A stretch of DNA of 64,000 nt, from NCBI GenBank assembly GCA_013152535.1, contig JAADGE010000051.1:70735-134734 (forward strand). The letters run 5' to 3'. This DNA comes from Chlorobiota bacterium. Its GTDB lineage: Bacteria > Bacteroidota > Bacteroidia > Bacteroidales > JAADGE01. Under the pieces are notes generated by a model, which had not been told where the DNA came from, made no database searches, and saw only the letters and a program-made list of their open reading frames with translations. A program made the translations under genes and the position numbers. Below are positions 6,176 through 60,800 of the stretch, in pieces; the stretch's first letter is position 1; each line of letters begins with the position of its first letter.

Positions 6176-9100
6176 ATGCAAAAGCGTGTATTTCAAACGG
6201 ACAAATTAAGACGTTTTACCCTTTATGGTATTATTACCTTATTGATTCTTCTGTTGAGCTTAATTATTATGTTGCAAACAGCTTACATTCAAACAAAAAT
6301 AACCAATTATATTACCAAAGAATTGTCGGAAAAACTAAAAACAGATATTCATATTGATAATGTAAATATCAGTCTGTTTAAGGGATTTAAGATACAAGGT
6401 ATTTTAATTAAAGATTTAAACAGAGATACAATGCTGTATATAAAAGATTTATATATTTTACCGTCAGGCATTCCGACCAATTTTAACAAACTCTCTTTTA
6501 GGTCTGTAGAACTTGATGAGCTATATTTTAATTTGTATGAAGTAAAAAAAGACACTTTAAATCTTGATTATATCATTGATGCAATGATACCTAAGAATGA
6601 CACAAGCAAAACTGAAGATTTTCATTTGAGAACAGCTAATTTAACAATTCATAATTCAGTTTTTAAATATAAAGAAATTGACAGTATTACAAATGACGGA
6701 ATGGATTTTGAAGATATGCAATTTTCTGATATTGAAGTTAATATTAATGATGTTGATATTTTTAACAGCACTATTCAAACAGTAATTAAAAATATATCAT
6801 TAAAAGAAAAAAGCGGATTAATTGTTAAGAATATAAGCACTAAAAAGAACTTTATCTCTCCGACAAAAATTCTGATAAAAGACTTAGATATTCAAACAGA
6901 TAAAAGTCATTTACAATTTGACAGCTTAAACTTATCGTATCCGGACAGATATTATTTCTCACCCTATAAAACAGATTTATACGTTGAGGCATCTTTTAAA
7001 AAAAGTTCTGCCGTAAATTATCAGGATATAGCTCTTTTTTTGCAGGATAGTATTATGCAAAACGGAAATATTTTTATTGCCGGAAACATTAAAGGTAAGT
7101 TGAATAATTTATATCTGTCCGGATTTTCTTTAAATGCCGAAAATGTTTTTTCTTTGAAAACAACTTCTCATATTAAAAATTTTCCTGACTGGAAGAATCT
7201 TGCATTTGATATCAATATTTCAGAATTGAAAGCAAATTTTGAGCAATTATCTCATTTCAGCTTGCCCGGTAAAAATAAACCGTTGATAAAAGTCCCTGTT
7301 GAATTGCAAAAGATTAAAAGTGTGAGTTATATCGGAAAAACAAAAGGAAATTCGTCAGATTTCACATCAAAAGGGATTTTATCAGGAGATTTCGGAAAAA
7401 TAACAATTGATGCTTCAGCACAAAAAGATACGGACAGTTTTACAACAATAACCGGAAATTTAACCGGAAAAAATATTGACATCGGTCGTGCTCTTGATAA
7501 TTCAATATTCGGGAAATTATCATTTGAGCAAAATTTTAATCTTATTTATTTAAAAAATAAAAAAATAAATATTAACACTTCCGGCATCATAAGTCAATTT
7601 AATTTTAAAAATCATACATATCATAATATTAATTTATTCGCTTCTGTAAATGATAAAATTCTGGACAGTTTAAATATAAGTATTAATCAACCGGAATTAG
7701 TTGCGGACTTATCCGGTTTTGGAGATTTTTCGGAAAATATTCCCAAATTAAACATTTTTACCGATATTTTACATGCCGATTTACAAGCAATGAAATTTAA
7801 AACAATGCCTTCATCATTGCAAACTGAAATAGTCGGCAATTTTAAAGGTCTCAATATTGACGATTTTGAGGGTACTGTTAAATTAAAAAAACCGCTTATT
7901 TATACAGAAGAAAATATTAATACCGTAATTACAAATTTATTGTTGAAGAGTAAATATACTGTAAAAGATTCCGTAAAATCAAAACAAATTTCATTAACAT
8001 CCGATATTGTTGATGTTTATTTAAAAAGCACAGGGAATATTTCAAATTCTTTCAAATCACTGAAATTAGTTTTTGATAATATATTTGACGAACCGATTAC
8101 TGAAAAAAAACCTGAAACAATTTCGGCAAATGACTTCTTGGATTTCAGCATAAATATTAAAAAACCGAATGTTCTTACACAACTGTTTTTACCTGATTTC
8201 GAAATAACGGCACAAAGTAAAGTTTTCGGCTATTTTCAACCTTATACCGAAAAATTTAATTTATCATTTAATGCAAAAGAGTTAAAATATAAAAGCAGCA
8301 GTATTAAAGATTTTTATTTTATTACATATACACACAATAATAAATTATATGCAGGATTAGGCGGTTCTTCTGTAAAGCCGAATAAAAATTTCTATCTTGA
8401 AAATCTTAATTTGGGAGGCGAAATTAAAAAAGACAATGTAAATTTTAATTTAATATGGAATAACTTTAAAGACAGTGCAAATTATGCGGCTGATATTTCC
8501 GGAACTGTAGTTATTCACAAAAAAGAGAATAATAAATATCGTTACAAATGCACATTTTCAAATTCTGAATTAACATTAAATGATATTCTTTGGAAATTTG
8601 ATAATGCTGCAGTAAACATTGATTCTTCTCATATTAATATTTCGGATTTCAGAATTATACATAATAACGAAGAAGTCTATATAGACGGTAATATCTCAAA
8701 ATATCAAGGTGATATTTTATATGCAAAGTTTAAAAACTTGAATATCAGCAATTTTAAACCCTTAATTTCAGATGATATAAAACTAACAGGTAAATTAAGC
8801 GGTTTTTCGACTTTTGCAGGACTTTATTCATCGCCTTTGGTTTTTACAAAAGACTCAATTATTGATTTAAATATTAATAATATGAATTTGGGAAATTTTT
8901 ATTTGAAAAGTTTTTGGGATGATGCAAAAAATTCTGTTCATGTAAATGCCTATAACCGGAAAGGCAAACGAAAATTTATGAATGATACAATATACGGTGA
9001 TTATAATCCGGATAATAAAACATTAAATTTTACGGTTGATGTAAGAAGTATGCTTTTAAAAACCTTTAGAGATTATTATGTTGATTTTGTCGATTTTAAT

Positions 9101-10627
9101 CCGTCGGCATTTTTAGCCGGAAAAATTAATATTAAAGGGAAAATTAATAATCCTGATATTACAGGAAATTTTAAAATTAAACAAACAACGGCATACATAC
9201 GATATTTAAATACGTTTAATAATATTGATGAATTACAATTTCGTTTTAATCGAAAAAATATAATAATAAACAAAACAAAAATGACGGCAAAAAACGGAAA
9301 GGGAACAGCTTTTATTTCCGGAATAATTCATCATAATAATTTTAAGAAATTTGCATTAGATATTGATGCTCAGGTAAATAACTATGACATATTAGATATC
9401 ATACGCACTGATTCATCCTACTATTACGGTCAGGCATATGCAAGCGGAAATATTAATTTTTCCGGACCTTTAGATGATATTTTTCTTGATGCAAATTTAA
9501 CGACAGAAAAAAATACCATTGTTTACATCCCTATTTCTTCTGATAAAACGTATAATGAAGAAAACAGCTTTTTAACATTTAAAACAGATACTGCAATTAT
9601 TCATAAATCGAAACCGTCAGTAAATATTACACAAAATACCGGCGGTTTCAGTATGAATTTAAAATTAGATGTTACGCCGGATGCCGATATTGAAATTTTA
9701 CCCGATGAAAGTTCCGGAGACATACAAACTGTCGGAAACGGCGGAATAAGTCTTATTTTAGATAAAAAGGGGGATTTTAATGTTTACGGGACTTATAATA
9801 TTTCAAAAGGGCATTATCAATTTAATCTGCAAAACATAATACGTACGGATTTTGTTATTACCGAAAACAGTACCATTGATTGGTTCGGTGCACCGGAAGA
9901 TGCGACCGTAAATATTAATGCGGCATATATGCTTAACAATGTATCCCTTTCGGATTTAACTCAAGACCCGAATGAAGTAAGACGAACAAATGTTCAATGT
10001 GTTATAAATATTACCGGTAAATTATTGAATCCGAAATTTAAATTAAATATTATATTACCCGAAAATTTAAATGAATATTCATCAAAACTAAATAATTTGG
10101 CTGAAAATGAATTAAATCAACAATTTTTATCTTTGTTACTTATCGGTGTTTTTCAGCCTTTACCCGGAATTAAGCAGGAAAATATTGCAGGAAATCAAGT
10201 AACCGGAGAAATTTTATCGAAACAATTAAACGGACTTTTAAAGTCAATTAAATATGTTGATTTGAATTTTGATTATAAATCCGGTAATGAAAATATCTCT
10301 AATGAATATAAACTTGGTTTGTCAAAAAAGTTTTTAAACGATCGTATTGAAATAAAAGGTAATTTAGGTATCGGCGGACAAGAAACACAACAATCTGATG
10401 CTGCAAATTATATCGGAGAATTTGAATTGCAGGCTAAATTAAATAAAAAAGGAACCATCAGAGCAAAAGTATATAATAAAGCGAATGATAAAATAGAAAA
10501 TGACGGAGATTATACTCAGGGTCTCGGCTTTATTTGGAGAAGAGATTTTGATTATTTATTTCGTTTTAATCGGAAACAAAAACCGGATACCGTAAAAATT
10601 CCGGAACGCAATGACAGTATTAAATAA
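6176..10627 (+). CDS. TamB-like translocation and assembly module protein (giant beta-rich envelope protein)
   Basis: 1483 aa with a single N-terminal TM anchor (LYGIITLLILLLSLIIMLQ) and a long repetitive beta-strand-like body. The C-terminal DUF490-like region has ...GDIQTVGNGGISL...G.Y.I..G.Y.F and a LGLSKKFLNDRIEIKGNLGIG tail. Divergent placement next to tsaD is common in Bacteroidota. Confidence 0.7.
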   Translation: MQKRVFQTDKLRRFTLYGIITLLILLLSLIIMLQTAYIQTKITNYITKELSEKLKTDIHIDNVNISLFKGFKIQGILIKDLNRDTMLYIKDLYILPSGIPTNFNKLSFRSVELDELYFNLYEVKKDTLNLDYIIDAMIPKNDTSKTEDFHLRTANLTIHNSVFKYKEIDSITNDGMDFEDMQFSDIEVNINDVDIFNSTIQTVIKNISLKEKSGLIVKNISTKKNFISPTKILIKDLDIQTDKSHLQFDSLNLSYPDRYYFSPYKTDLYVEASFKKSSAVNYQDIALFLQDSIMQNGNIFIAGNIKGKLNNLYLSGFSLNAENVFSLKTTSHIKNFPDWKNLAFDINISELKANFEQLSHFSLPGKNKPLIKVPVELQKIKSVSYIGKTKGNSSDFTSKGILSGDFGKITIDASAQKDTDSFTTITGNLTGKNIDIGRALDNSIFGKLSFEQNFNLIYLKNKKININTSGIISQFNFKNHTYHNINLFASVNDKILDSLNISINQPELVADLSGFGDFSENIPKLNIFTDILHADLQAMKFKTMPSSLQTEIVGNFKGLNIDDFEGTVKLKKPLIYTEENINTVITNLLLKSKYTVKDSVKSKQISLTSDIVDVYLKSTGNISNSFKSLKLVFDNIFDEPITEKKPETISANDFLDFSINIKKPNVLTQLFLPDFEITAQSKVFGYFQPYTEKFNLSFNAKELKYKSSSIKDFYFITYTHNNKLYAGLGGSSVKPNKNFYLENLNLGGEIKKDNVNFNLIWNNFKDSANYAADISGTVVIHKKENNKYRYKCTFSNSELTLNDILWKFDNAAVNIDSSHINISDFRIIHNNEEVYIDGNISKYQGDILYAKFKNLNISNFKPLISDDIKLTGKLSGFSTFAGLYSSPLVFTKDSIIDLNINNMNLGNFYLKSFWDDAKNSVHVNAYNRKGKRKFMNDTIYGDYNPDNKTLNFTVDVRSMLLKTFRDYYVDFVDFNPSAFLAGKINIKGKINNPDITGNFKIKQTTAYIRYLNTFNNIDELQFRFNRKNIIINKTKMTAKNGKGTAFISGIIHHNNFKKFALDIDAQVNNYDILDIIRTDSSYYYGQAYASGNINFSGPLDDIFLDANLTTEKNTIVYIPISSDKTYNEENSFLTFKTDTAIIHKSKPSVNITQNTGGFSMNLKLDVTPDADIEILPDESSGDIQTVGNGGISLILDKKGDFNVYGTYNISKGHYQFNLQNIIRTDFVITENSTIDWFGAPEDATVNINAAYMLNNVSLSDLTQDPNEVRRTNVQCVINITGKLLNPKFKLNIILPENLNEYSSKLNNLAENELNQQFLSLLLIGVFQPLPGIKQENIAGNQVTGEILSKQLNGLLKSIKYVDLNFDYKSGNENISNEYKLGLSKKFLNDRIEIKGNLGIGGQETQQSDAANYIGEFELQAKLNKKGTIRAKVYNKANDKIENDGDYTQGLGFIWRRDFDYLFRFNRKQKPDTVKIPERNDSIK

Positions 10628-13680: not shown

Positions 13681-16551
13681 ATGAAATTTTTTCAAAACAT
13701 CAGTATTAAATCTCGATTTAATTATATTTTAATAAGCGTCGTAATTTTAATTGTTATTATAATTACGTTTTTTATTTTTTCCGTAAAAAACATCAATCAA
13801 TACAGTGAGTCCTATCACAGAGCAGATATATTAAAAATTCATTATTTAAATTTACGCAGATATGAATTACAATTTTTATTGAGATATAATAATGATGCAG
13901 AATTCTTCTTATCAGAAAGGAATAAATATATTGATAAATTTGAAAAAACGTCAGACATATTTTCAAATGTTAATCAATTATTAATTAAAGATAAAATTAC
14001 TGAGACATTCAACCTTAAAACACGTTTAATAAATATTGAAAATGCAAAAGAAAATTTTATCGAAACTTTTGAGGACTTAACACATCAAATTTTTGTACGC
14101 GGAAATATATCTTCCGGAATTATTGGTGCTCTGAAAAACAGTGAAAATGAAATCTCAAATACAGATATGTCTCCTAAAACCGTATCCCTAATTTCCGAAA
14201 TGATATTACTTACCGATAATTATTTATTATCGAAAGATGAAACAAATTATACAAAGTTCTTAGTCAAATATAATAAACTTACGGGCACAAAAAGTACTTT
14301 TCAAAATGATTCTTTGCAGAACAATCAAGCCGGAATTTCTAAATCAGATAAAATTCTTCAATCATATAAAACAAATTTTACGGCATTGATAAAAGCCGAT
14401 AAACTTATCGGCTTAAAATACGATGAAGGATTGCGCGGAAAATTAAGAACATATACACAAACTTTAGATTCAGAAACAGAACAATTGATGACTTCTGTTG
14501 AAGAGTATAAAAAAGCAGCTCAAAGGCAAGCTGTTTATACAATAATTATTTTCTTTATAATAATAGGTGTGTTGTTTTTGATTCTTTTCAAACAATTTGC
14601 TAATTCCGTTGCAAAACCGTTGAATCAACTGAAAAAATATATCAGCCCCTTAAGTCTTGGTGTTTTTCCGTCAGAAAAACCGGATATAGGAGGTAATAAC
14701 GAAATATCGGAAATTTGCAATTCAACTGATAATTTAATAGAAGGGCTTAAACAAACATCTCAATTTGCACAGGAAATAGGAAAAGGAAATTATCAAATAA
14801 ACTATAAACCATTGAGCAAACAGGATATTTTGGGAAACGCATTATTAGAAATGCAGGAAAATATTATCAAAAGTTCTGCAGAAGAAGAAAAAAGAAAAGA
14901 AGAAGAAGAAATCAGAACTTGGATTAATGAAGGATTGACTAAATTTAATGATATTTTAAGACAAACCCAAGGTAATATCGTCGAAATGTCTTCTAAAGTT
15001 ATTTCTGAACTTGTAAAATTTATAAATGCAAATCAAGGCGGTATGTTTGTATTTAATGATGATGAAGAACAGCGATACCTTGAATTAACAGCAGCATATG
15101 CATATGGTCATGAAAAGAAAAAACAAAAAAAGATCTTGCTTGGTGAAGGGATGGTAGGTATGGTTGCTGCAGAAAAGAAAACTGTTTACAGAACCGAAAT
15201 TCCGGAATCTTATATAACAATTACTTCAGGTTTGGGCGATGCTGTTCCGAGAAGTTTGCTCATTGTTCCGATGATTACCGAAGATGAAGTTATAGGTGTT
15301 ATTGAAATAGCATCTTTTAATGAATTACAAAAACATGAAATTAATTTTGTCGAAATTTTATCTGAAACAATTGCTGCATCGTTGTCTGTTACTAAAATTA
15401 ACCAAAGGACAACTGTGTTATTGGAGCAGTCACAAAAACAAGCTGAGTTGATGAAAATTCAGGAAGAAGAAATGAGGCAAAATTTTGAAGAACTTCAGCA
15501 AGCACAGGAAAATGCAGCTCAAAAAGCAGCTCAAATGTCCGGAATTTTAGCTGCAGTTGACACAAGTTCTTTAGTTCTTGAAATTGATATAAACAGTAAT
15601 ATAATTTCTGCTAACAGAAACTTAATTGAATTATTAGAAGTTGAAGAGCAAGATATTCTAAACAAACAAATTAATACTTTAATTCATATTGAAAATGAGA
15701 ATGAATTTAATGAATTTTGGCAAAAATTGTTAAAAGGTCAAAATATTCAACGAAATGAACACATTAATGTCAACGATAAAGAATTTTGGTTTAATACAGT
15801 TTATGCTCCTATTATTGACGAAACCGGCAAAATCCTCTATATTATGTCAATTTCTTCAGATTTAAGCGAATTTAAAAAACTTGAATTTGAATTAAAAGAA
15901 CGTGAAAAACAACTTCGCATAAATTTAGAAGAAATTAATAAAGCACATAAAGAAGCTGAACGTAAGCAACATATCTTAGAAAATACTAACGAAATGTTGA
16001 AAGCCAATGAAAAAACTTTGCAATCTGCTGTTGAAAATGCGATGAAACAACGAAAAGAAGTTGCAAAAAAAATGGAGGAAATTGCTGAAAAAGAAGCTGA
16101 AACCAAAAGTTGGCTGGAAGGTATCAATCAAACTAATATTACGGCTGAGTTTGATATGGAAGGGAATATTCTTTCCGTTAATCATATTTTCGAACAAAAA
16201 TTCGGCTATAAAGAAGCTGACTTAAAGAATAAAAAACACGATTTTATTGTAAATAAAAAAATGCTTGGAAGCGAAGAATATAAAAAAACCTGGGAAAAAT
16301 TACACAACGGAATTCATGTGAGCGGAACATTCCGATTCATTAATAATAAAAAAGAAGAAATTTATATACAGGGAACCTATACTGCAATTAAGGATCATAA
16401 AGGAAAAACCATAAAAATTTATCTTATAGGATTTGATACTTTTGAACTTGTTAAACGTTCGGAAGAATTAAAAGCTCGTGAAAAAGAACTTTCTTTGCAA
16501 ATTGAAGAAATGAAAATATTGCAGAAAAAATTAAAAAATAATAAAAAATAA
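13681..16551 (+). CDS. Membrane sensor protein: extracytoplasmic helical domain, TM, HAMP-like linker, GAF, coiled coil and two PAS domains, with no recognisable output domain
   Basis: Two TM segments (ILISVVILIVIIITFFIF; IIIFFIIIGVLFLILF). GAF-like region (GGMFVFNDD...LGEGMVGMVAAEKKTVY...LIVPMITEDEVIGVIEIASF). Two PAS units of the LAAVDTSSLVLEIDINSNIISAN / INQTNITAEFDMEGNILSVN type. Long heptad-rich linkers. No H-box, GGDEF, EAL, MCP signalling or REC motif is visible. Confidence 0.75.
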   Translation: MKFFQNISIKSRFNYILISVVILIVIIITFFIFSVKNINQYSESYHRADILKIHYLNLRRYELQFLLRYNNDAEFFLSERNKYIDKFEKTSDIFSNVNQLLIKDKITETFNLKTRLINIENAKENFIETFEDLTHQIFVRGNISSGIIGALKNSENEISNTDMSPKTVSLISEMILLTDNYLLSKDETNYTKFLVKYNKLTGTKSTFQNDSLQNNQAGISKSDKILQSYKTNFTALIKADKLIGLKYDEGLRGKLRTYTQTLDSETEQLMTSVEEYKKAAQRQAVYTIIIFFIIIGVLFLILFKQFANSVAKPLNQLKKYISPLSLGVFPSEKPDIGGNNEISEICNSTDNLIEGLKQTSQFAQEIGKGNYQINYKPLSKQDILGNALLEMQENIIKSSAEEEKRKEEEEIRTWINEGLTKFNDILRQTQGNIVEMSSKVISELVKFINANQGGMFVFNDDEEQRYLELTAAYAYGHEKKKQKKILLGEGMVGMVAAEKKTVYRTEIPESYITITSGLGDAVPRSLLIVPMITEDEVIGVIEIASFNELQKHEINFVEILSETIAASLSVTKINQRTTVLLEQSQKQAELMKIQEEEMRQNFEELQQAQENAAQKAAQMSGILAAVDTSSLVLEIDINSNIISANRNLIELLEVEEQDILNKQINTLIHIENENEFNEFWQKLLKGQNIQRNEHINVNDKEFWFNTVYAPIIDETGKILYIMSISSDLSEFKKLEFELKEREKQLRINLEEINKAHKEAERKQHILENTNEMLKANEKTLQSAVENAMKQRKEVAKKMEEIAEKEAETKSWLEGINQTNITAEFDMEGNILSVNHIFEQKFGYKEADLKNKKHDFIVNKKMLGSEEYKKTWEKLHNGIHVSGTFRFINNKKEEIYIQGTYTAIKDHKGKTIKIYLIGFDTFELVKRSEELKAREKELSLQIEEMKILQKKLKNNKK

Positions 16552-16557
16552 CCGGAT

Positions 16558-17271
16558 ATGGTTTTCTCAAGAAGATATTTTTTCATATCAGTTCTTATTT
16601 GTATTTCAACCTTCAGTTTTTCTCAATCGGAAAGCAGTTTAATAAGAAATATAAAACAACCATATAATATTAAAGATTATTTTTTGCTTTTACCCGACAG
16701 TGTTTTAAAAGTTTACGATACAGAAATTAATTTGCACCAACGCCTTCTTTCATTAAAATACAACACATTAGAGGATTTATGGAATAATGACGGATATTGG
16801 ATTTTAGATACACTCGACTACAAAAACGGATATTTAAAGTTATCATCAACCGGTGACGGTGCAGGAACAATTTTTGAAATTACATATTTTATAAAAAAAA
16901 ATAAAACACGTGAAATCGCAGTAAATAAAATTTATTGGGATTTAGGAATGTCCTTTTCTGTGTTGAATTTTTACGAATTTAAAAATCTTATTTGGAGGAA
17001 TATTACGAAAGAAGTACTGCCGCCTGTCAAACTTTCAGATTTTACAATCAGTAAATATGCCGAACTTATTAAGTCTCAAATTGATTATTTCCCAGTTGTT
17101 TATAAACTTCCTCAAAAAGGTAAAAATATTAAAGCCGAAATTGATCCTGCAACAATTGATAATTTATTTGATGAAAAAAAAATTGACGAAAATGAATATG
17201 TAAAAATTAAAGAATCGCTTCATAAATTAGTCCTTTTATGGAAAGACGGGATTTTTATTATTCAAAAATAA
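16558..17271 (+). CDS. Hypothetical secreted protein
   Basis: Signal peptide (FFISVLICISTFSFSQS). It starts 7 nt after the preceding sensor gene, so it is probably co-transcribed. No recognised motif. Confidence 0.5.
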   Translation: MVFSRRYFFISVLICISTFSFSQSESSLIRNIKQPYNIKDYFLLLPDSVLKVYDTEINLHQRLLSLKYNTLEDLWNNDGYWILDTLDYKNGYLKLSSTGDGAGTIFEITYFIKKNKTREIAVNKIYWDLGMSFSVLNFYEFKNLIWRNITKEVLPPVKLSDFTISKYAELIKSQIDYFPVVYKLPQKGKNIKAEIDPATIDNLFDEKKIDENEYVKIKESLHKLVLLWKDGIFIIQK

Positions 17272-17436
17272 AATAACACATTAGCTTCACACATAACACT
17301 ATACAACAACTAAACATTTTTCTGCTTATATACTCAGCCGTTTCTGAGAAAAAAAACGTAAATTTACATAGGGTAAAACTTGTTTCAAGTATCATAGCAA
17401 TAAACAAGCTATTTTATTCATTTAAAAATTACAGCC

Positions 17437-18717
17437 ATGAAAAATTTACAATTTATAAAACAGACTTTTGTTCTGTTTATTTTTTTATTATCTGCCCATT
17501 TTATTTATTCCCAAAATGAAGCCGTTAAAATAAATGAAAATAATATCATCATATCAGGAAAAGTTATTGATGCTGAGACTGTTAAGCCTATTGCCTTTGT
17601 TTCTGTATCCGTAAAAGGAACAAATATAGGAACCGTTACAAATACCGAAGGAGAATTTACTGTCAGGTTTGAAAAAGAATTAAATGTGAACACTCTTACC
17701 TTTAAATATATCGGTTATCAAAATTTGGAAGTTCCGATAAATTCATTTAAAGAAAAGAAATTTAAGGTTAAAATGAAACCTTCTGTAATTTCTATTCAGG
17801 AAGTAATTATTCGTCCTAATCATCCTGAAGATATTATTACAGAAGCGTTAAAGAAAATTCCGGATAATTACAGTATTGTTCCGAATAAAGAAATGGCATT
17901 CTATCGTGAATATGTAAGAAAACGAAGAAAGTATGTATCAGTATCAGAGGCAGTTGTAGAAATATATAAGGCACCCTATAATAATAAATTTGCAGTTGAT
18001 TTGGTAAAACTCTATAAAGGGCATAAAAGTGCCGATGTAAAAGCACAGGATACAATTATTATGAAATTAAGAGGCGGTCCCAAAACAGCACTTCTTCTGG
18101 ATATCGCTAAAAATCCGGATATTTTATTTTCCGGAAATAAAATCAAACAATATAACTTTACTTTAACGGAAATTACAAATATTGATAACCAACAAAATTA
18201 CATTATTAATTTTCAACAAAAACCAAATCAGCAATTCCCGCTTTTTAACGGCAAAGTGTATATTAATATTAAAACATTAGCAATAACAGCAGTCGAATTT
18301 AGTCTGAATTTAGAAAATAAAGACGAAGCAAGCAGAGTTTTTGTAAGAAAAAAACCTTTATTTATGAGTATTATGCCGACAAGTACAAAATATATGGTCA
18401 GTTATAAACAGCAAAACGGAAAATATTATTTTTCCCATGCAAGAGGAGAAGTTAATTTTAGCGTAAAATGGAAAAGAAAATTGTTTAAATCACATTATTC
18501 GGTAATGACAGAAATTGCAATTACTGACAGAACAGATAAAAATGTTCAAAAAATACCAAAAAAAGAACAACTGAAAGGCGGAATTATTTTTGGCGAAAAA
18601 GTTTATCCGCTTTCCGACCAAGATTTCTGGGGAAAATATAACACCATAAAACCTGAAGAAGCTATTGAAAAGGCCATTAAAAAATACGGGGTTAAACTTA
18701 AAATTCAAAATAATTAA
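17437..18717 (+). CDS. Secreted carboxypeptidase-regulatory-like domain protein with an uncharacterised beta-rich C-terminal domain (paralog of 20257..21762)
   Basis: Signal peptide, then a CarboxypepD_reg-like module (ISGKVIDAETVKPIAFVSVSVKGTNIGTVTNTEGEFTV). Shares ISIQEVIIR, FYRE, (N/K)GK(V/L)YI and a C-terminal FW....I.PE..I..AIKK with the 20257 protein. Confidence 0.6.
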   Translation: MKNLQFIKQTFVLFIFLLSAHFIYSQNEAVKINENNIIISGKVIDAETVKPIAFVSVSVKGTNIGTVTNTEGEFTVRFEKELNVNTLTFKYIGYQNLEVPINSFKEKKFKVKMKPSVISIQEVIIRPNHPEDIITEALKKIPDNYSIVPNKEMAFYREYVRKRRKYVSVSEAVVEIYKAPYNNKFAVDLVKLYKGHKSADVKAQDTIIMKLRGGPKTALLLDIAKNPDILFSGNKIKQYNFTLTEITNIDNQQNYIINFQQKPNQQFPLFNGKVYINIKTLAITAVEFSLNLENKDEASRVFVRKKPLFMSIMPTSTKYMVSYKQQNGKYYFSHARGEVNFSVKWKRKLFKSHYSVMTEIAITDRTDKNVQKIPKKEQLKGGIIFGEKVYPLSDQDFWGKYNTIKPEEAIEKAIKKYGVKLKIQNN

Positions 18718-18774
18718 TATAAAATCAACAGTATTATTACAAATTTCGAGAGAAATAAATTTAATACAAAAATC

Positions 18775-19296
18775 TTGATAAAAACAATACTGAATAATAT
18801 CTCAATTGAGGAATTTGAAACCTTATTTAAGAAATATTACAAGCAATTATGTTTGTATGCCTTTAAATATGTTAAAAATAATATAATTGCAGAAGAAATT
18901 GTTCAGGATGTATTTTTTAAAATTTGGGAAAAACGTTCTTTTATAAAGATTAAAATTTCAGCAAAATCATATCTTTATATGTCTGTGAGAAATAGGTGCT
19001 TACAATATTTAAAACATAAAAAAATTGAGAAATCATACGAAAAATATATTGATAATCAAGCTGTAATAAATACTGAAATGCCTTACGAGAATATTATTTA
19101 TGACGAAACACTTGATATATTCAATGAAGTATTAAACACTTTACCGGCTCACTGTTCGCAAATTTTCATTTTAAGCAGATTTAATGGTTTGAAATACAGG
19201 GAAATAGCTGACCGCTTATCAATTTCAGTTAAAACCGTAGAAGCAAATATAAGTAAAGCACTTAAATTATTAAGAGTATATTTCCCTGAATACTAA
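18775..19296 (+). CDS. ECF-type RNA polymerase sigma-70 family factor
   Basis: 173 aa. Region 2 (EEIVQDVFFKIWEKR) and the region 4 HTH (GLKYREIADRLSISVKTVEANISKALKLLR). TTG start. Confidence 0.88.
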   Translation: MIKTILNNISIEEFETLFKKYYKQLCLYAFKYVKNNIIAEEIVQDVFFKIWEKRSFIKIKISAKSYLYMSVRNRCLQYLKHKKIEKSYEKYIDNQAVINTEMPYENIIYDETLDIFNEVLNTLPAHCSQIFILSRFNGLKYREIADRLSISVKTVEANISKALKLLRVYFPEY

Positions 19297-19309
19297 ACAC
19301 ATATCAACA

Positions 19310-20260
19310 ATGTTATATAAAGAAAATCATATTATTCAAAACTTAATAAACGGAAAACTTGATGAAAGAGACCGCAAAAAAGCAGTTTCCCAAATTCAAA
19401 AAAAATCCGTTCCGGAAAATATAGAAATGAAACAAAACAAAACAGAGAATCAATTTATTTCGGATATTGCTTGGAATAAATTATACAACAAAATTGAAAA
19501 TGCCGGTTTACTTACTGAAAAAGAAATAAATTCAGGGTTTAAATTCAATATACGCAATATTGCAGCATCGGTTATTCTGTTAATAGGTTTATCAGTCGGT
19601 TTATATTACGGCTTTTCAGAAAAAATAATTTCCGTAACAGCAGTTACTCAAATAAAAAACGTCATATTACCGGACGGTTCGCAAATCAGTTTAAATGTCG
19701 GATCAGAAATAGAATATCCCGAGAGATTTAAAAAAAATAACAGAAAAGTTAAATTCTCGGGTGAAGGTTTTTTTAATATTACAAAAAATTCAAAAAAACC
19801 CTTTATTATTAAAACCGGAGATTCAGAAATTAAAGTAGTGGGAACCTCATTCAATGTAAATACAAAAAATAAAAAAACAGAAGTTATCGTTACAACAGGA
19901 AGAGTTGAGTTAAAAACTGAAAAACAAAAAATTGTTTTAAACCCCGGAGAAAAAGGCATTTCTGCAAAAGGTATTTTACAAAAAAACATAAATAAAAATT
20001 TAAATTATTTATCGTGGAAAACATCAATTTTTACTTACGAAAATGAAAAACTAAAAAACATTGTTTCGGATATTAATAATGTTTACAATGTTAATATTGT
20101 ATTTAAAACTAATGCTGTCGGTGAACTTGTAGCCGGAAGCATGAGTTTTAACAAAAACACTGATAATATCGGCACATTGATAAATGTTCTGTGCAATACG
20201 CATCATTTAAAAGCAGAAAAAAAAGGGAGAAAAATTATTTTGTCTGAAATCGATTTATGA
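19310..20260 (+). CDS. FecR-family transmembrane anti-sigma factor
   Basis: N-terminal cytoplasmic part, one TM (IAASVILLIGLSVGLYYGF), FecR domain (LPDGSQISLNVGSEIEYPERF...FSGEGFFNITKNSKKPFIIKTGDSEIKVVGTSFNV) and a DUF4974-like C-terminus. The stop overlaps the next start (ATGA at 20257-20260). Confidence 0.88.
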   Translation: MLYKENHIIQNLINGKLDERDRKKAVSQIQKKSVPENIEMKQNKTENQFISDIAWNKLYNKIENAGLLTEKEINSGFKFNIRNIAASVILLIGLSVGLYYGFSEKIISVTAVTQIKNVILPDGSQISLNVGSEIEYPERFKKNNRKVKFSGEGFFNITKNSKKPFIIKTGDSEIKVVGTSFNVNTKNKKTEVIVTTGRVELKTEKQKIVLNPGEKGISAKGILQKNINKNLNYLSWKTSIFTYENEKLKNIVSDINNVYNVNIVFKTNAVGELVAGSMSFNKNTDNIGTLINVLCNTHHLKAEKKGRKIILSEIDL

Positions 20261-21762
20261 GAAAAGTTTTTTTATTGATATTTTTTTATTTCATTAATGC
20301 AAATTTCTGTAACGCTCAAAACTCTGTATTACAGCAATCTGTCAATGTAAAATTTTCCGATAAGAGTATTAATGAAGCATTAAATATTTTAACTGACAAA
20401 ACGAACTATTACTTTTCGTATGATTTAAGAATTGTTCCCGAGAAAAAAATCATAAGTATCCGTAAAACGAATGTTTCTTTAGAATCAATTCTTGACAGTA
20501 TTTTTACAAAACATGCACATTATCAAATCATAGGAAATCATATTGTAATTACAAAATTAACTTGGGCTGAAAATAAGCACATTACACAAGATACCTTATT
20601 GATATTTTCGGGAAAAATTATCAATGCAAAAACAAAAACTGCCGTTCCGTATGTATCTGTCGGAATTTTAAACACAACAAAAGGAACAATTTCTAATCAA
20701 AACGGTGAATTCTCATTAAAAATTCCTTTAAAATACAGAGACAGTATTGTTTACATTTCAAGTATCGGTTTTAAAAGTCGCGAATATTTTGTTTCTGCTT
20801 TACCTCCGAATAAACAAATAATACAACTAAAACCTGAATATATTTCAATACAAGAAGTAATTATCAGAAATGAAGACCCGGCACAAATTGTAAAAAATGC
20901 AATATATAATACAAAAAAGAACTATATCCGAAAAAAGTGTCTGATAACGTCTTTTTATCGTGAAGGGGTTATTAAAAATAAAATTTTAAATAATTACTCC
21001 GAAGCACTGATAAAAATTTTAAAAACTCCTTATAAAACAATTGCAAATTCTGATAAAATTAAAGTTGTAAAATCACGTAAATTTATAAATGTATTGCAAA
21101 AAGATACTTTACCGGTAAAGTTAAAAGACGGTTTATATTCTTCATTACAATTTGATATTGTTCGAAATAATTTTGATTTTTTTAATCCGGAAGGTATGCA
21201 AAATTATAATTACCGTTTAATTGATATCGTTCCTTTTAATAACCATACATTATTTGTTATAGAATTCAACCGGAAAGAATATATTAAAACGTCGCTTTAT
21301 AAGGGTAAACTGTATATTGATAATAAAACTTTTGCCTTAATATCAGCAGAATTTCAAATTAATTTGAAGTCAGAAAATAATAGTGTAAATTTTGTTGTTA
21401 AAAAGAATCGTAATTTCATTGTAAAACTGAAGTCTGCAAAATACATTGTTAATTATAAAGAAATTAACCGAAAATATATTTTAAACCATGTAAGAGCCGA
21501 TTTAATTTTTAAAATCCGAAAAAAACACAGTCTTTTTGCATCATATTACAAAATATTCTTGGAAAACGCTGCAATATCTTATGATTTCCGAAACATAAAA
21601 AAATTTCAACGAAAAGAAATCTTGAAAAAAAATTCAGTATTTATTGATAATTCATACAGTTACGATGCATATTTTTGGTCTGATGATAATTTTATCTCAC
21701 CTGAAACATCAATAACGGATGCAATAAAAAAAATACGTTCCAAAATAAAATTTACGGAATAA
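20257..21762 (+). CDS. STN-domain + carboxypeptidase-regulatory-like domain protein lacking a plug/beta-barrel (atypical partner of the FecR anti-sigma)
   Basis: Signal peptide. STN-like module (VNVKFSDKSINEALNILTDKTNYYFSYD...VSLESILDSIF...IIGNHIVI). CarboxypepD_reg-like module (FSGKIINAKTKTAVPYVSVGILNTTKGTISNQNGEFSLKIP). The remaining ~300 aa are homologous to the C-terminal domain of 17437..18717. 501 aa in total is far too short for a TonB-dependent transducer. Confidence 0.65.
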   Translation: MRKVFLLIFFYFINANFCNAQNSVLQQSVNVKFSDKSINEALNILTDKTNYYFSYDLRIVPEKKIISIRKTNVSLESILDSIFTKHAHYQIIGNHIVITKLTWAENKHITQDTLLIFSGKIINAKTKTAVPYVSVGILNTTKGTISNQNGEFSLKIPLKYRDSIVYISSIGFKSREYFVSALPPNKQIIQLKPEYISIQEVIIRNEDPAQIVKNAIYNTKKNYIRKKCLITSFYREGVIKNKILNNYSEALIKILKTPYKTIANSDKIKVVKSRKFINVLQKDTLPVKLKDGLYSSLQFDIVRNNFDFFNPEGMQNYNYRLIDIVPFNNHTLFVIEFNRKEYIKTSLYKGKLYIDNKTFALISAEFQINLKSENNSVNFVVKKNRNFIVKLKSAKYIVNYKEINRKYILNHVRADLIFKIRKKHSLFASYYKIFLENAAISYDFRNIKKFQRKEILKKNSVFIDNSYSYDAYFWSDDNFISPETSITDAIKKIRSKIKFTE

Positions 21763-21807
21763 AATTTTAAAAGAAATTTTGAAAATCATAATTTTGACAA
21801 AAAAAAG

Positions 21808-23214
21808 ATGAAAAAACTTACAATATTATTAACGGTTATTTTTTTTGCTCTGCCGAGTTTTTCACAAAACATAATCGGTGATTGGAGTGGAAAACTACAC
21901 GTACAAGGGATACAGTTAAGAATTGTATTTCACATTATCGAAGATAATAATAATTTTAAAGTTACATTAGACAGTCCGGATCAAGCTGCTTACGACCTGC
22001 CGGTTGACAGTTTTTTTATGAAAAACACAAAAATTAAAATGGTAATGACCAAACTTGCTGCAGAATATTCAGGGACAATAAATGCTGCAAAAAATGAAAT
22101 TACCGGCGAATTCAAACAAGCGGGACAAAGTTTTCCTTTAAATCTAAAAAAAGGAAAAATTAAAACCGAAAAGAAAAAACGATATCAGGAACCTGAGAAA
22201 CCGTACCCGTACATTTCGGAAGATATTACATTTAAAAATAAAAAAGCTGATATTACTTTAGCCGGAACCTTAACATTGCCGAATAAAAAAGGTAAATTTC
22301 CGGCAGTTATTCTAATCAGCGGATCAGGAGCACAAAACAGAGATGAAGAATTGCTCGAACATAAACCGTTTTTAATAATTTCTGATTATTTAACGCGTAA
22401 AGGAATCGCCGTTTTACGTTTTGACGACAGAGGAACTGCAAAATCAACCGGTAACTTTAAATCGGCAACAACCAAAGATTTTGCCGAGGATGTTGAAGCT
22501 GCTTTTAAGTATTTATCAGCACGAAAAGAAATTCAAAAGAATAACATCGGACTAATCGGGCACAGTGAAGGCGGATTAATTGCTCCGATGCTTGCAGCAG
22601 AAAATAAAAATGTTGCTTTTATTATTATGCTTGCCGGTCCGGGACTTACCGGTGAAAAAATATTATTAATGCAATCGCAACTTATAGGAAAAGCCGGCGG
22701 AGCAACGGATAAAGAACTGAAAGCAAGTAAGAAACTTAATAAAAAGATATATGCACTATTGAAAAAAGAAACTGATACGAGTTTATTAAAACATAAAATT
22801 AACAACTTATTATCCAAAGAACTTAAAAATCAAAAAGATACCGGAAAATTGTCTCAAAATGAATTAAAAATGCTAATCAGCAGGCAAATAAATATTTTAA
22901 CAAGTCCGTGGTTCAGGTATTTTTTAACTTATAATCCGGCTGAAACACTTGAAAAAGTTACTTGTCCGGTTCTTGCATTATTCGGAAAAAAAGATATGCA
23001 GGTACCTCCTTTCGCTAATGAAAAAGCTGTAAAAAAAGCATTGAATAAAGGCGGAAATACAGATTTTAAAACAATTATTTTGCCGAATTTAAATCATCTT
23101 TTTCAAAAGTGTAAAACCGGTTCTCCGGCAGAATATGCCAAAATTGAGCAAACATTTTCGCCTGTTGCTTTAAAAGAAATTTCGGACTGGATTCTTGCAC
23201 ATATAAAAAACTAA
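21808..23214 (+). CDS. Secreted alpha/beta-fold hydrolase
   Basis: Signal peptide, nucleophile elbow GHSEGG, and downstream Asp/His candidates (GKKDMQVP, LNHLF). Substrate unknown. Confidence 0.75.
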   Translation: MKKLTILLTVIFFALPSFSQNIIGDWSGKLHVQGIQLRIVFHIIEDNNNFKVTLDSPDQAAYDLPVDSFFMKNTKIKMVMTKLAAEYSGTINAAKNEITGEFKQAGQSFPLNLKKGKIKTEKKKRYQEPEKPYPYISEDITFKNKKADITLAGTLTLPNKKGKFPAVILISGSGAQNRDEELLEHKPFLIISDYLTRKGIAVLRFDDRGTAKSTGNFKSATTKDFAEDVEAAFKYLSARKEIQKNNIGLIGHSEGGLIAPMLAAENKNVAFIIMLAGPGLTGEKILLMQSQLIGKAGGATDKELKASKKLNKKIYALLKKETDTSLLKHKINNLLSKELKNQKDTGKLSQNELKMLISRQINILTSPWFRYFLTYNPAETLEKVTCPVLALFGKKDMQVPPFANEKAVKKALNKGGNTDFKTIILPNLNHLFQKCKTGSPAEYAKIEQTFSPVALKEISDWILAHIKN

Positions 23215-23219
23215 AAACT

Positions 23220-23693
23220 ATGGCAGAAAATTTGAGTATTGCAACAAATCTCAGCAAAGAAGAAAAATACAAAACATTAATACCGCAAATAAAAGCATTA
23301 GTTCATAGCGAAAATGATTTGATTGCTAATATGGCAAATATCTGCTCCGTATTGTATTTCGGAATGAACTTTTTTTGGTCGGGCTTTTATTTGGTTAAAA
23401 AAAATGAATTAGTTTTAGGTCCGTTTCAAGGACCTGTTGCATGTACTCGTATCCGATACGGGAAAGGTGTTTGCGGAACGGCTTGGAAAAATAAAAAAAC
23501 ACTGATTGTTCCTGATGTTAATAAATTTTCGAATCATATTGCCTGCAGCAGTGAATCTAAATCAGAAATTGTACTTTGCGGCATTAAAAATAATACCGTT
23601 CAATTTGTGTTAGATATTGACAGTAATAAACTTAATGATTTTGATGCAATTGATGCAAAATATCTCAAAGAAATAATTGAAAAAATTATTTAG
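23220..23693 (+). CDS. msrC: Free methionine-(R)-sulfoxide reductase (GAF-domain MsrC/YebR family)
   Basis: Collinear with E. coli YebR as I recall it: WSGFYLVKKNELVLGPFQGPVACTRIRYGKGVCGTAW, HIACSSESKSEIV, VLDIDS. Confidence 0.85.
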   Translation: MAENLSIATNLSKEEKYKTLIPQIKALVHSENDLIANMANICSVLYFGMNFFWSGFYLVKKNELVLGPFQGPVACTRIRYGKGVCGTAWKNKKTLIVPDVNKFSNHIACSSESKSEIVLCGIKNNTVQFVLDIDSNKLNDFDAIDAKYLKEIIEKII

Positions 23694-57892: not shown

Positions 57893-60800
57893 ATGAAACA
57901 ATTTTTTTTCAAAAATATATTGTTTTTATTTCTGTTAGCATCCGAAATTTTAACAGCACAAAATAAATCCTTAAATGTTCGGCATTACTCCATCAGTGAC
58001 GGACTTTCTCAGAGCTTTACAACTGATATTTGCCAAGATAAATTAGGTTATATTTGGATAGGAACACAAGACGGGTTAAATCGTTTTGACGGTTATAAAT
58101 TCAAAATATTCAGGCAAAACCCGGCAAATAAATATTCAATATCAGATAATTACATTGTTGATTTATTTGCATCCGAAGACTCATTACTTTGGATTGTCAA
58201 CAACAGCGGCTTAGAAGTTTATAATTATAAAACAAACCGGTTTAAAAGTATTCTAAAAAATAAACAAAGCAAATATTCAACATACTCTACGAATATTAAG
58301 GCAGTTACGGTTGATAAGAAGGGTATTGTTTGGTTGCGAACAATTCAAAGTATTATTGAATATAATCCCCGAAAAAATAATTTCTTTGAGTATAAAATAT
58401 ATCCGGAAAATATAAACTCAGGAGGCGGGGTCTTTGACATATATAAATTAGCAGACGATTCTGAAAATTTATGGACAGGATCTTCTAACGGACTTGTTAA
58501 ATTCAATAAACAGGCAAAAAAATTTACTACTTATAAATACAATAAAAAGGATACAACAGATAATAATATTTATACAATTTTTATTGAAAACAATAATAAA
58601 ATTTGGGCAGGTTCAAAAGATAAACTTTTCCTTTTTAATACAAAAAATGAAACCTTCAGCGAATATAAAACTAAAATAAATTTAGAACAAATTCAATCCA
58701 TTTATGTTGACAAAAATAATATAGCAATAGGAACCGTAAACGGAATTTATTACAGTTCACCGGGGAATACATTACATAAATTAAATCTTGAAGATTATAT
58801 TTACGATGAAATTAAAATAGGAAATGTTTCAAATATTTTCAAAGATTCTTCGAATATATTATGGGTATCAACAGACTTCGGTATTTTTAAAATTAATTCT
58901 AAAAAAACAAATTTTGAACTTTATCGAAAAGATAAGAACAACAAACTTAATTTTTCGTCTAATACAATTTATTCAGTTTATCATGATATAAAAACCGATG
59001 CAATATGGTTCGGTACAAGAGGTTTTGGTCTTAATCTATTTTACAGAAAATCAGGAAGAGTATTACACTTTAATAAAGATAATTCTAACATCCCCGATAA
59101 TAATATATATTGTATTGTAAAAGGTCCGAACCGTAATTTATGGATTGGTACGAATAACGGACCTGCAATATGGTTATACAAAAAATCCGAATTCATTAAA
59201 TTTAATCAATTCACAAATCAAAATTTTGATTCTGTTTTTTTAAATAATCGTTTATCTAACATCATGTTCGATAAAAAAACGATTTGGTTTTCTACATACA
59301 AAGGACTTTATAAATACGAAAACAGAAAATTAACAGCATATACAAAAAAAGATATCGGGAACAGCATTGTTGACAATCAAACTTTTAAAACCATTAAAAG
59401 CAGTACGGGCGATTATTGGATTGCAACTTTATACGGATTAAGTAAGCTTAATCCTAAAACAGGAACTTTCACAAATTACACCCACGATAATAATAAAATA
59501 AGTAACAATATTGTTCCTGTTGTTTTTGAAAGTTCGGATTCTGTAATTTGGGCAGGAACAGGAACAGGATTAAACAAATATATTCCGAAAAAAGATTCAT
59601 TTATATTTTACACATCACAAAGTAACGGTTTCAGTAATGATTTCATATATACAATAGTTGAAGATAATTATAAAAATTTGTGGATGAGTACCAACAGGGG
59701 AATTATTAAATTTAATCCTTACACAAATGAAGTAACAAATTTCTCAAAAGAAGATAATTTACAAGGATATGAGTTCAATGTTAATGCTGTATATAAAGAT
59801 AAAAACAATGAAATTTTTTGGGGTGGAGTTCAAGGTCTTAATTCATTAAAACTAAATAAAATAAAAAAAAATACATTCGTTCCTAAACCCATTATTACCC
59901 ACTTCTTCATACATACAAAAAAAGGTATTAAAGAAATAGTTTTAGGTAATAAAAAAATAATTAATCTGTCCTATAAGGAAAACAGTTTCGATATTCGATT
60001 TGCCGTTCCCGAATATTCAAATCCGTTAAAAAATAAATTTAAATACAGAATTAAGGAATCCGGAAAAGAATGGACTGATTTAGGAAACAATAATTTTATT
60101 AACTTTTTCCAACTTGCATCCGGAACATACACATTTCAAGTCATAGGAGCAAACAGTGACAACTGCTGGAACATTGATCCGACTGAAATTATTATTAATA
60201 TCAGCACGCGGTGGTGGCTTACAACCGGTGCTTACATTATATATATTTTTATTCTTCTGAGTATTATCGGTATCGGGTTTTTAATTTATAATAAAGAAAT
60301 ACGAAAAGAAAACAAAATTCTGCAGGAAAAACAAATTGCAGCAAAACAAGTTGAAAAACAAAAGGAATTATTAGCAATTAAAAATAATAATATTGCCGAA
60401 AGTATGCGTTATGCATCAGGTATTATAAATGCACTTATTCCTACAAATGAACAAATCAAAAAAATCATTCCCGATTCTTTTGTTTTATTTATGTCAAAAG
60501 AAATCGTAAGCGGCGATTTTTATTGGATTGAAGAAACCGAAGATAAAATTTTCATAGCTGCTGTTGATTGTACAGGACACGGTGTACCCGGAGCATTTAT
60601 GTCAATTATCGGATTAGATTTACTCAGAAATATTACCGAATCAGGAATTAACACACCCTCAAAAATATTAGACCATTTAAACAGGGGAATTTATTCAATG
60701 TTTCGAAATGAAGAACACGGACACAAATTAAAAGACGGCATGGATCTCAGCATAATTGCCGTACACAAAAATAAAAATATTGTTGAATTTGCCGGAGCAA

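Follow-up and report, generated by a model that had tools for sequence, protein, structure and literature searches.

An ECF sigma/FecR operon conserved in Bacteroidales encodes an STN-domain protein without plug or barrel, a candidate soluble transducer

The window analysed here is a stretch of 64,000 nucleotides (nt) from a Chlorobiota bacterium (Bacteroidales; contig JAADGE010000051.1, positions 70,735–134,734 of the forward strand). Our subject is a cassette of four genes within it, all on the + strand, that encodes an extracytoplasmic function (ECF) sigma factor, a FecR-type anti-sigma factor and two related secreted proteins, here called paralogs A and B. Paralog A (426 residues; 17437–18717), described from its open reading frame (ORF), Pfam matches and an AlphaFold2 model, is followed by the sigma factor (173 residues, TTG start; 18775–19296), the FecR-type protein (316 residues; 19310–20260; PF04773 and FecR_C, PF16344) and paralog B (501 residues; 20257–21762), the candidate barrel-less transducer. 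A bipartite promoter-like element (17368–17396, + strand) precedes paralog A, and the gene for a secreted, EstD-like α/β hydrolase, assigned from Pfam and NCBIfam (468 residues; 21808–23214, + strand), follows paralog B. A first-pass annotation, made from the DNA letters, had described the sigma, FecR and 501-residue genes in this arrangement, and all of them are present as ORFs, down to the 4 nt (ATGA) shared by the fecR stop and the start of paralog B. Paralog B is translationally coupled to FecR and lies next to the ECF sigma factor. The region contains no RNA family or tRNA match.

To our knowledge, every FecR-type signalling system understood so far senses through an outer-membrane TonB-dependent transporter, and STN domains, the N-terminal extension (NTE) domains of SusC proteins and TonB boxes are treated as hallmarks of such barrels. 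In paralog B a signal peptide (residues 1–20, cleavage before Q21) leads into an STN domain (residues ∼24–102; nt 20326–20562), a disordered linker (103–111), an NTE (114–192), a TonB-box-like motif, ISIQEVIIR (196–204; nt 20842–20868), and a LolA/RseB-like C-domain (205–501; nt 20869–21759). The first-pass annotation had read the protein as a signal peptide, an STN module, a carboxypeptidase-regulatory-like module and a tail of about 300 residues, and the Pfam matches agree: STN (PF07660) reaches 30.1 bits, with the cut-off at 28.4, and CarbopepD_reg_2 (PF13715) covers residues 118–203 (E 3e-14). The STN region is found in all 120 members of the B family that were aligned, 58 of which have a precomputed PF07660 match. 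From the NTE region there is also a partial match to the NCBIfam SusC/RagA model TIGR04056, restricted to profile positions 3–83 of 981.

As had been proposed, neither paralog has a plug or a 22-strand barrel; Plug (PF07715) and TonB_dep_Rec give no Pfam match at E≤1 in either protein, and the outer-membrane barrel PF00593 gives none in Pfam or NCBIfam. Only ∼300 residues are left after the NTE, and the models show ∼11 strands. The AlphaFold2 model of paralog B, built from a 120-sequence alignment (mean predicted local distance difference test score, pLDDT, 84), comprises an α/β STN head (residues 28–100), an immunoglobulin-like domain (114–191), short helices (198–222), ∼11 long antiparallel strands (228–443) and a C-terminal helix (486–500). 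When searched against the PDB with Foldseek, the head resembles the signalling domains of FpvA and the N0 domains of secretins and PilQ, with the PupA signalling domain as a weak match. The NTE of both paralog models matches the SusC NTE structure 9hfj closely (target-normalised TM-score 0.83–0.85, root-mean-square deviation (rmsd) ∼2 Å, 25–28% identity). Prediction does not make the tail a TonB-dependent barrel, remnants of a plug or barrel are absent and the STN domain is recognised; paralog B is a genuine, full-length and conserved STN protein without plug or barrel.

Paralog A is the twin of B without the head. It has a type I signal peptide, an NTE (residues 39–125) and a C-domain (127–426), with no STN; CarbopepD_reg_2 (39–125, E 8e-19) is its only significant Pfam match. 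The homology of the two tails that the first-pass annotation had noticed is confirmed, with 33% identity over 386 residues (E 2e-62), and extends further than proposed, into the NTE; the shared motifs ISIQEVIIR, FYRE, GK.YI and FW..N.I.PE..I..AIKK are all recovered in the alignment. In paralog A the ISIQEVIIR motif occupies residues 118–126 (nt 17788–17814). An independent AlphaFold2 model of paralog A (85-sequence alignment, pLDDT 82, predicted TM-score 0.67) has the topology of the B model minus its head.

Structural comparisons place the C-domain, as modelled, in a fold class other than that of the TonB-dependent barrels. For the tails of both paralogs the best Foldseek matches belong to the LolA superfamily, namely the DUF1329 protein 4z48, NE2245 (3buu), 3bk5, Porphyromonas gingivalis LolA3 (9tp6) and Escherichia coli LolA (6f3z), and the tail of paralog A additionally matches RseB (2v42, 3m4w, 2p4b), MucB (6in9, 6jau) and LprG. 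The LolA-type matches have Foldseek probabilities of 0.95–1.0 and E values from 1e-5 to 7e-7, and the eukaryotic lipid-transfer barrels of MTP, lipovitellin and ApoB are also among the tail matches. Pfam and NCBIfam have no model for this domain. Both paralog clades share about two dozen invariant positions, more than half of them polar or charged. The first-pass annotation had seen the head of a transducer grafted onto a different, uncharacterised domain; the part of this proposal that concerns the tail holds, the domain being common to paralog A, while the head, as described below, is not a plain SusC head.

Several features indicate that both paralogs are probably soluble in the periplasm rather than embedded in a membrane. 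Type I signal peptides are the rule in both families, with cleavage typically before Gln, and a lipobox is present in only 1 of 120 B-family and none of 85 A-family members, which rules out a lipoprotein. The C-terminal residues are polar: neither window protein ends in an aromatic residue, as had been noted, and Phe, Tyr or Trp comes last in 6 of 120 B-family and 0 of 85 A-family members. Charges are found on both faces of 8 of the 10 predicted strands in the 501-residue protein and 5 of the 10 in the 426-residue protein, 28% of each C-domain consists of charged residues, and matches to porin-type barrels are weak (Foldseek probability 0.1–0.5). A small outer-membrane barrel is ruled out by the polar C-termini, the charges on both strand faces and the low porin probabilities.

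The C-domain may have a distant relative. Seven of the 85 A-family members (P0233, P0220, P0217, P0187 and P0239 among them) have weak matches to DUF5686 (PF18939), of 22–25 bits against a cut-off of 39.2, that cover profile positions 120–181 of 669; the window proteins have no such match. These weak matches are in register, which hints at a common origin of the C-domain and the N-terminal portion of DUF5686. No DUF5686 protein was found for comparison in the fetched loci described below, and a literature search for this family returned an unrelated proteomics mention and no functional description.

One further protein, P0265 (901 residues, from outside the window), combines an STN-like head and an NTE with two tandem C-domains (∼206–480 and ∼594–883), the second of which scores equally against the profiles of both paralog clades. 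Its tandem layout may hint that two C-domains act together. It was considered as a "Rosetta stone" fusion of FecR and STN and rejected, being an STN-like head, an NTE and two C-domains with no FecR fused to them.

The family is large and uniform in length. A search of a large protein collection with the 501-residue query gave 271 matches, the best 120 of which are all ∼500–545 residues long and belong to Bacteroidales-type metagenome-assembled genomes or, in a few cases, to isolates; they are annotated only as "carboxypeptidase-like regulatory domain-containing protein". The family of paralog A has 1386 matches of ∼415–450 residues. Against 1.84 billion representative proteins, a profile of the C-domain finds 3069 clusters at E≤1e-3 and 669 at E≤1e-30, a family of ∼3000 clusters at 50% identity, and the best 150 of these matches fall, fragments aside, into two length classes of ∼415–440 and ∼500–540 residues.

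A scan of species-representative genomes with a 13-sequence alignment gave 188 relatives, 80 of which were fetched as loci, and the ORFs of each locus were searched with the window's own proteins for gene order. The order paralog A, sigma, FecR, paralog B on one strand is seen in all 69 complete sequences (the window and 68 loci), and wherever a gene is missing, which is the case in 13 loci, a contig end interrupts the locus within ∼350 nt, so the recurrence beside sigma and FecR that the first-pass annotation had asked about is found wherever there is enough flanking DNA. Such constancy of family length and gene order goes well beyond coincidence. Across loci paralog A spans ∼416–460 residues and the STN protein ∼500–560, and the distance from fecR to the STN gene has a median of −4 nt (69 loci). 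Carriers include Tenuifilaceae, Lentimicrobiaceae, Prolixibacteraceae and Marinilabiliaceae, together with Labilibaculum, Ancylomarina salipaludis, Perlabentimonas gracilis and Marinifilum; among the complete genomes with the cassette are OY762227.1, P. gracilis M08_MB, A. salipaludis SHSM-M15 and Marinifilum sp. D737. Distant members of the A family (43–45% identity), taken as starting points in three look-ups, led to the same cassette at four places (L082–L085), flanked on one side by rpsI-rpsB-tsf-pyrH-frr and a radical SAM gene and on the other by an OmpA-family gene and dxs. The annotated neighbour families that recur within the clade are likewise housekeeping ones (OmpA-family, dxs, radical SAM, SufBD and MatE); the cassette sits among housekeeping genes and not in a polysaccharide or iron-uptake locus. 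Paralog A is the better conserved of the two twins, with 96% identity to its closest relative and 73% to the next, against 89% and 57% for paralog B.

A promoter-like element was found by anchoring on over-represented 8-mers. It consists of ATAGGGTA, 14 nt and (G/T)(A/G)TC(A/T)TA, with an A-rich stretch in front. The window copy, ATAGGGTA-N14-TATCATA, has its −35-like part at 17368–17375 and its −10-like part at 17390–17396, ends 41 nt before the ATG of paralog A and is the single match in the 64 kb. In 61 of 64 related loci TAGGGT stands at a comparable position; the element lies mostly 55–100 nt before the annotated start codon of the paralog gene and is present also in the loci reached from paralog A. 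The strict bipartite pattern has 55 matches in 900 kb of loci, 51 of them upstream of a paralog gene. No conserved element or internal promoter was found between the paralog and sigma genes, where the enriched k-mers are sigma coding sequence. The geometry suits an ECF-type promoter, so that the paralog gene is probably the start of an autoregulated operon, and we propose that the element is its sigma-dependent promoter. It offers a direct handle for defining the regulon. The first-pass annotation had listed the upstream paralog as a candidate member of that regulon, which fits its place behind the element yet understates the case: paralog A is the obligate first gene of the operon.

The sigma factor, which has Sigma70_r2 and r4_2 domains and matches TIGR02985 ("Bacteroides expansion family 1") with 176 bits, keeps its position in all complete loci. 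The FecR-type protein has a cytoplasmic N-terminal region, a transmembrane segment at residues ∼81–103, a FecR domain (109–200) and a FecR_C domain (241–311). Its G178-T179-x-F181 is invariant in 78 of 78 sequences, and G178-T179 (nt 19841–19846) corresponds to the position at which E. coli FecR cleaves itself, Gly181/Thr182 (PMC12036975). According to the current Fec model, a pull by TonB on the TonB box of FecA is passed on by the signalling domain to the C-terminal fragment of FecR, whose release starts a cleavage cascade (PMC12036975). Paralog B keeps the order signalling domain, TonB-box-like motif, body, and Fec-like mechanics are therefore conceivable without a barrel.

The motif itself is the best-conserved segment of paralog B and, judged from sequence comparison, appears to be a retained TonB-box-like motif. 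In a profile search of PDB sequences, iSiqEviir aligns column for column with VDEVVV of Bt1763 (5t3r_D, 6ytc_A), and the equivalent segment of two other SusC-type receptors aligns with it as well. This stretch of Bt1763 is its TonB box, deletion or alanine change of which impairs growth on levan (PMC7782687), and the NTE that precedes the box is essential, with a suggested part in the choice of a TonB (PMC7782687; bioRxiv 10.64898/2026.09.16.752182). Across the 501-residue family, identity to the window protein is 76% for a 13-residue segment that includes the motif, compared with 31% for the STN domain, 37% for the NTE and 44% for the C-domain. In both paralogs the motif sits in a local dip of model confidence; such a combination of high conservation and low confidence is as expected for a linear interaction motif. 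The order of the head is unusual. SusC proteins under sigma/anti-sigma control are reported to have the NTE before the STN domain (PMC7782687), whereas in paralog B the STN domain comes first and the NTE second, the reverse order; because the STN domain comes first, the head of paralog B is not a simple copy of the N-terminus of a signalling SusC.

The reading that we favour, with modest assurance, is that the operon encodes a barrel-less form of FecIR-type signalling in which paralog B is a soluble periplasmic transducer. The STN head of paralog B would dock on the C-terminal domain of FecR, the NTE and the TonB-box-like motif would form the TonB-engaging module known from SusC proteins, and the LolA/RseB-like domain would replace plug and barrel as the ligand-sensing body. 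The ligand would most plausibly be a hydrophobic or amphipathic molecule of the envelope, such as a lipid, the acyl chain of a lipoprotein or a lipopolysaccharide (LPS) intermediate. Its binding, possibly together with a pull of TonB on the exposed box, would dislodge the self-cleaved C-terminal fragment of FecR, release of the fragment would set off the cleavage cascade of FecR, the sigma factor would be freed, and the latter would transcribe the operon from the ATAGGGTA-N14-TATCATA promoter, along with a further regulon; ligand binding would presumably be the activating event. Paralog A may be a co-induced partner of B, acting as a ligand carrier, a buffer or the other half of a heterodimer.

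A number of observations weigh against this interpretation. The STN match of the window protein is marginal. The motif is modelled in paralog B as a short helix and not as an extended strand, and its conservation may have a structural cause or serve another partner; moreover, a soluble protein offers TonB no outer-membrane anchor against which to pull. The similarity of the C-domain to LolA is one of predicted fold class and not of family membership, because the target-normalised TM-scores of the LolA-type matches are low (0.24–0.39) and the rmsd values are at least 10 Å (∼10–20 Å). No LolA-type Pfam family matches the window proteins (E≤1) or the 85 family members (E≤0.01), and no PDB sequence is matched by the C-domain profile at E≤10. 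The invariant polar residues (Y-R-E, E249, K256, R274, D283, D300 and W474) could mean a polar pocket or a catalytic site instead of a greasy cavity, and their number in both paralogs calls for caution in assuming a purely greasy, LolA-like interior. In one genome, described below, the promoter element also stands before a SusC-like receptor, so transport may still belong to the system. Finally, functional statements about the operon are computational inferences, drawn from sequences and predicted models.

A bolder form of the soluble-transducer reading, which we put forward only tentatively, is that both paralogs serve the Ton motor as soluble periplasmic clients and are the first TonB-box proteins without a barrel, so that the system would be a hybrid of Fec and RseB that reports, by way of a FecR cleavage cascade, on the cell's own envelope lipids or lipoproteins and not on an external nutrient. 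Binding of the ligand would expose the box, and TonB would then pull the STN-bound FecR fragment off the membrane-anchored FecR.

It is possible, if rather unlikely, that paralog B works without TonB, as a guard of the RseB/MucB kind. It would then shield the periplasmic domain of FecR until a mislocalised lipid, LPS intermediate or lipoprotein released it, and ISIQEVIIR would be structural or would bind a partner other than TonB. RseB and MucB are indeed among the best structural matches of paralog A, RseB is an established lipid- and LPS-responsive inhibitor of anti-sigma cleavage (summarised in PMC12036975), and the operon occupies a core-genome context near an OmpA-family gene. RseB, however, binds RseA directly and does so with no STN domain, NTE or TonB-box-like motif, and a guard of this kind leaves unexplained why the NTE and an extremely conserved box are retained in both paralogs.

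We also regard as doubtful the proposal that paralog B, and perhaps A, is the detached signalling and TonB module of an outer-membrane receptor encoded elsewhere, with the LolA-like domain docking on the barrel and sensing coupled to transport. It draws on one genome of the Tenuifilaceae (locus L001), in which the full consensus, ATAGGGTA-N14-GGTCATA (L001:14792–14819, − strand), lies 104 nt upstream of the gene for a SusC-like receptor of 1152 residues (L001:11257–14715, − strand). This receptor is solitary, 5 kb from the cassette, with no STN domain and no SusD gene. A Plug-domain receptor is encoded within 1–2 kb downstream of the cassette in four other loci (L045, L017, L011 and L068). Receptor neighbours are nonetheless not conserved; they occur in ∼5 of 70 loci, roughly the chance rate for receptor-rich Bacteroidota, and no TonB-dependent receptor was found in the 64-kb window. 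A metagenome scan and a homolog search found no close orthologs of the L001 receptor, and its relatives do not have the promoter motif. The promoter pattern has four off-target matches, the L001 site being one of them, in 1.8 Mb of searched strand, which is near the chance rate. A receptor as a conserved neighbour or as a member of the regulon is not supported beyond this one genome.

One of the downstream receptors, in L011 (925 residues; L011:8345–11122, + strand; ∼900 bp from the cassette), has 160 α/β-looking residues with no Pfam match before its NTE, and its gene lies between a 240-residue ORF and one for a lipoprotein-like protein of 383 residues. It might show the order STN-like domain, then NTE, in a real receptor; as an example of STN before NTE it was set aside, since Pfam recognises no STN domain there.

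Improbable, in our judgement, is a third alternative, in which the paralogs are the output of the system and not its sensor, as an enzyme or dedicated carrier for an envelope component, with sigma and FecR triggered in some other way. The invariant and largely polar positions shared by both clades, the better conservation of paralog A and the 3069 representative clusters of the C-domain family all fit such a role, but signalling to FecR is the only role known for an STN head with translational coupling to FecR, and no catalytic family or fold was matched. That paralog B is an artefact, either a truncated or frameshifted SusC-type transducer (a pseudogene) or a small outer-membrane barrel, is effectively refuted: the partial TIGR04056 match of its NTE and the weak porin matches are outweighed by a uniform length over hundreds of homologs, conserved synteny with downstream genes that are conserved and unrelated to receptors, the lack of any Plug or barrel signal, polar C-termini, strands charged on both faces and a domain order that is the reverse of that in signalling SusCs.

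The first-pass annotation had named the downstream α/β hydrolase as a candidate regulon member, a suggestion that is not supported: the hydrolase adjoins the cassette only in the three closest relatives (L002–L004) and has no promoter element of its own, and it is not part of the module. In the window it may be co-transcribed with the cassette, as its gene begins 45 nt after paralog B with no terminator-like site in the gap. An ORF of 157 residues directly after it (23220–23693, + strand) has no Pfam match at E≤1e-5; a homolog also follows the hydrolase in L004, so that in the closest relatives the two genes occur as a pair.

Directly upstream of the cassette (13681–17271, + strand) is a pair of genes that is also found in the closest relative, L002. 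The first encodes a protein of 956 residues with an N-terminal membrane segment, a GAF domain, several PAS domains and no recognisable output domain, and the second, 7 bases after it, a secreted protein of 237 residues with no family match. About 7 kb upstream of the cassette lies an envelope-biogenesis gene, that of a TamB-like protein of 1483 residues (6176–10627, + strand), with a TamB C-terminal domain and a DUF748-like N-terminus. At the far end of the window (57893–61153, + strand) a protein of 1086 residues joins a Reg_prop/Y_Y_Y periplasmic sensor, of the type that is typical of the hybrid two-component systems of Bacteroidota, to a SpoIIE-type (PP2C) phosphatase, which stands where the kinase and response-regulator modules usually sit.

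If the soluble-transducer reading is correct, the sources of input to FecR would widen from nutrient uptake to periplasmic, possibly lipid-related, cues. The operon would then also be a minimal, barrel-free system in which to ask what the NTE and the TonB box do, and it would give a first functional context to the large, uncharacterised C-domain family. A literature search found no description of an STN domain combined with a LolA-like domain, nor of this architecture or operon, and this context is absent from the main text of the ECF re-classification paper.

With FecA/FecR/FecI of E. coli, the Fpv, Fox and Pup systems of Pseudomonas and the SusC systems of Bacteroides polysaccharide utilisation loci the operon shares the ECF sigma factor, a FecR with its Gly-Thr site, a partner in which an STN head is followed by a TonB-box-like motif, the position of that partner's gene next to fecR and, probably, autoregulation. 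It differs from them in that plug, 22-strand barrel and C-terminal aromatic residue are all missing from the partner, which appears instead to be soluble with a LolA-like body; the STN domain precedes the NTE, an STN-less paralog is obligate, the context is one of housekeeping genes, and no receptor belongs to the conserved cassette. As in RseB/RseA/sigma-E and MucB/MucA/AlgU, which couple the lipid and LPS state of the envelope to proteolysis of the anti-sigma factor, a periplasmic protein of predicted LolA-type fold is encoded in an operon with an ECF sigma factor and a single-pass anti-sigma factor, although there is no detectable sequence relationship and the anti-sigma factor is of the FecR and not the RseA type.

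The modelled C-domain resembles the LolA superfamily of Bacteroidota (LolA, LolB, LolA3 and DUF1329) in its open antiparallel sheet of ∼11 long strands, accessory helices and C-terminal helix. In contrast to these proteins, it is ∼300 residues long instead of 190–240, reaches TM-scores of only 0.33–0.39 with them, is fused to NTE or STN modules and has no profile match, and lipid binding by it is putative. DUF5686 has a similar N-terminal layout, with the NTE (CarbopepD_reg) first, but is a family ∼370 positions longer and is itself uncharacterised. Like Dma, the operon appears to be a rewiring, specific to Bacteroidota, of ECF sigma/anti-sigma signalling at the envelope without a canonical TonB-dependent transducer; in Dma, however, the anti-sigma factor itself reaches the outer membrane, whereas here an ordinary FecR is paired with a separate STN protein that is predicted to be soluble. 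The logic of a sigma factor, a FecR and an STN-bearing partner is thus a known one, and what is new is the nature of the partner, its reversed head, its obligate twin and its housekeeping context.

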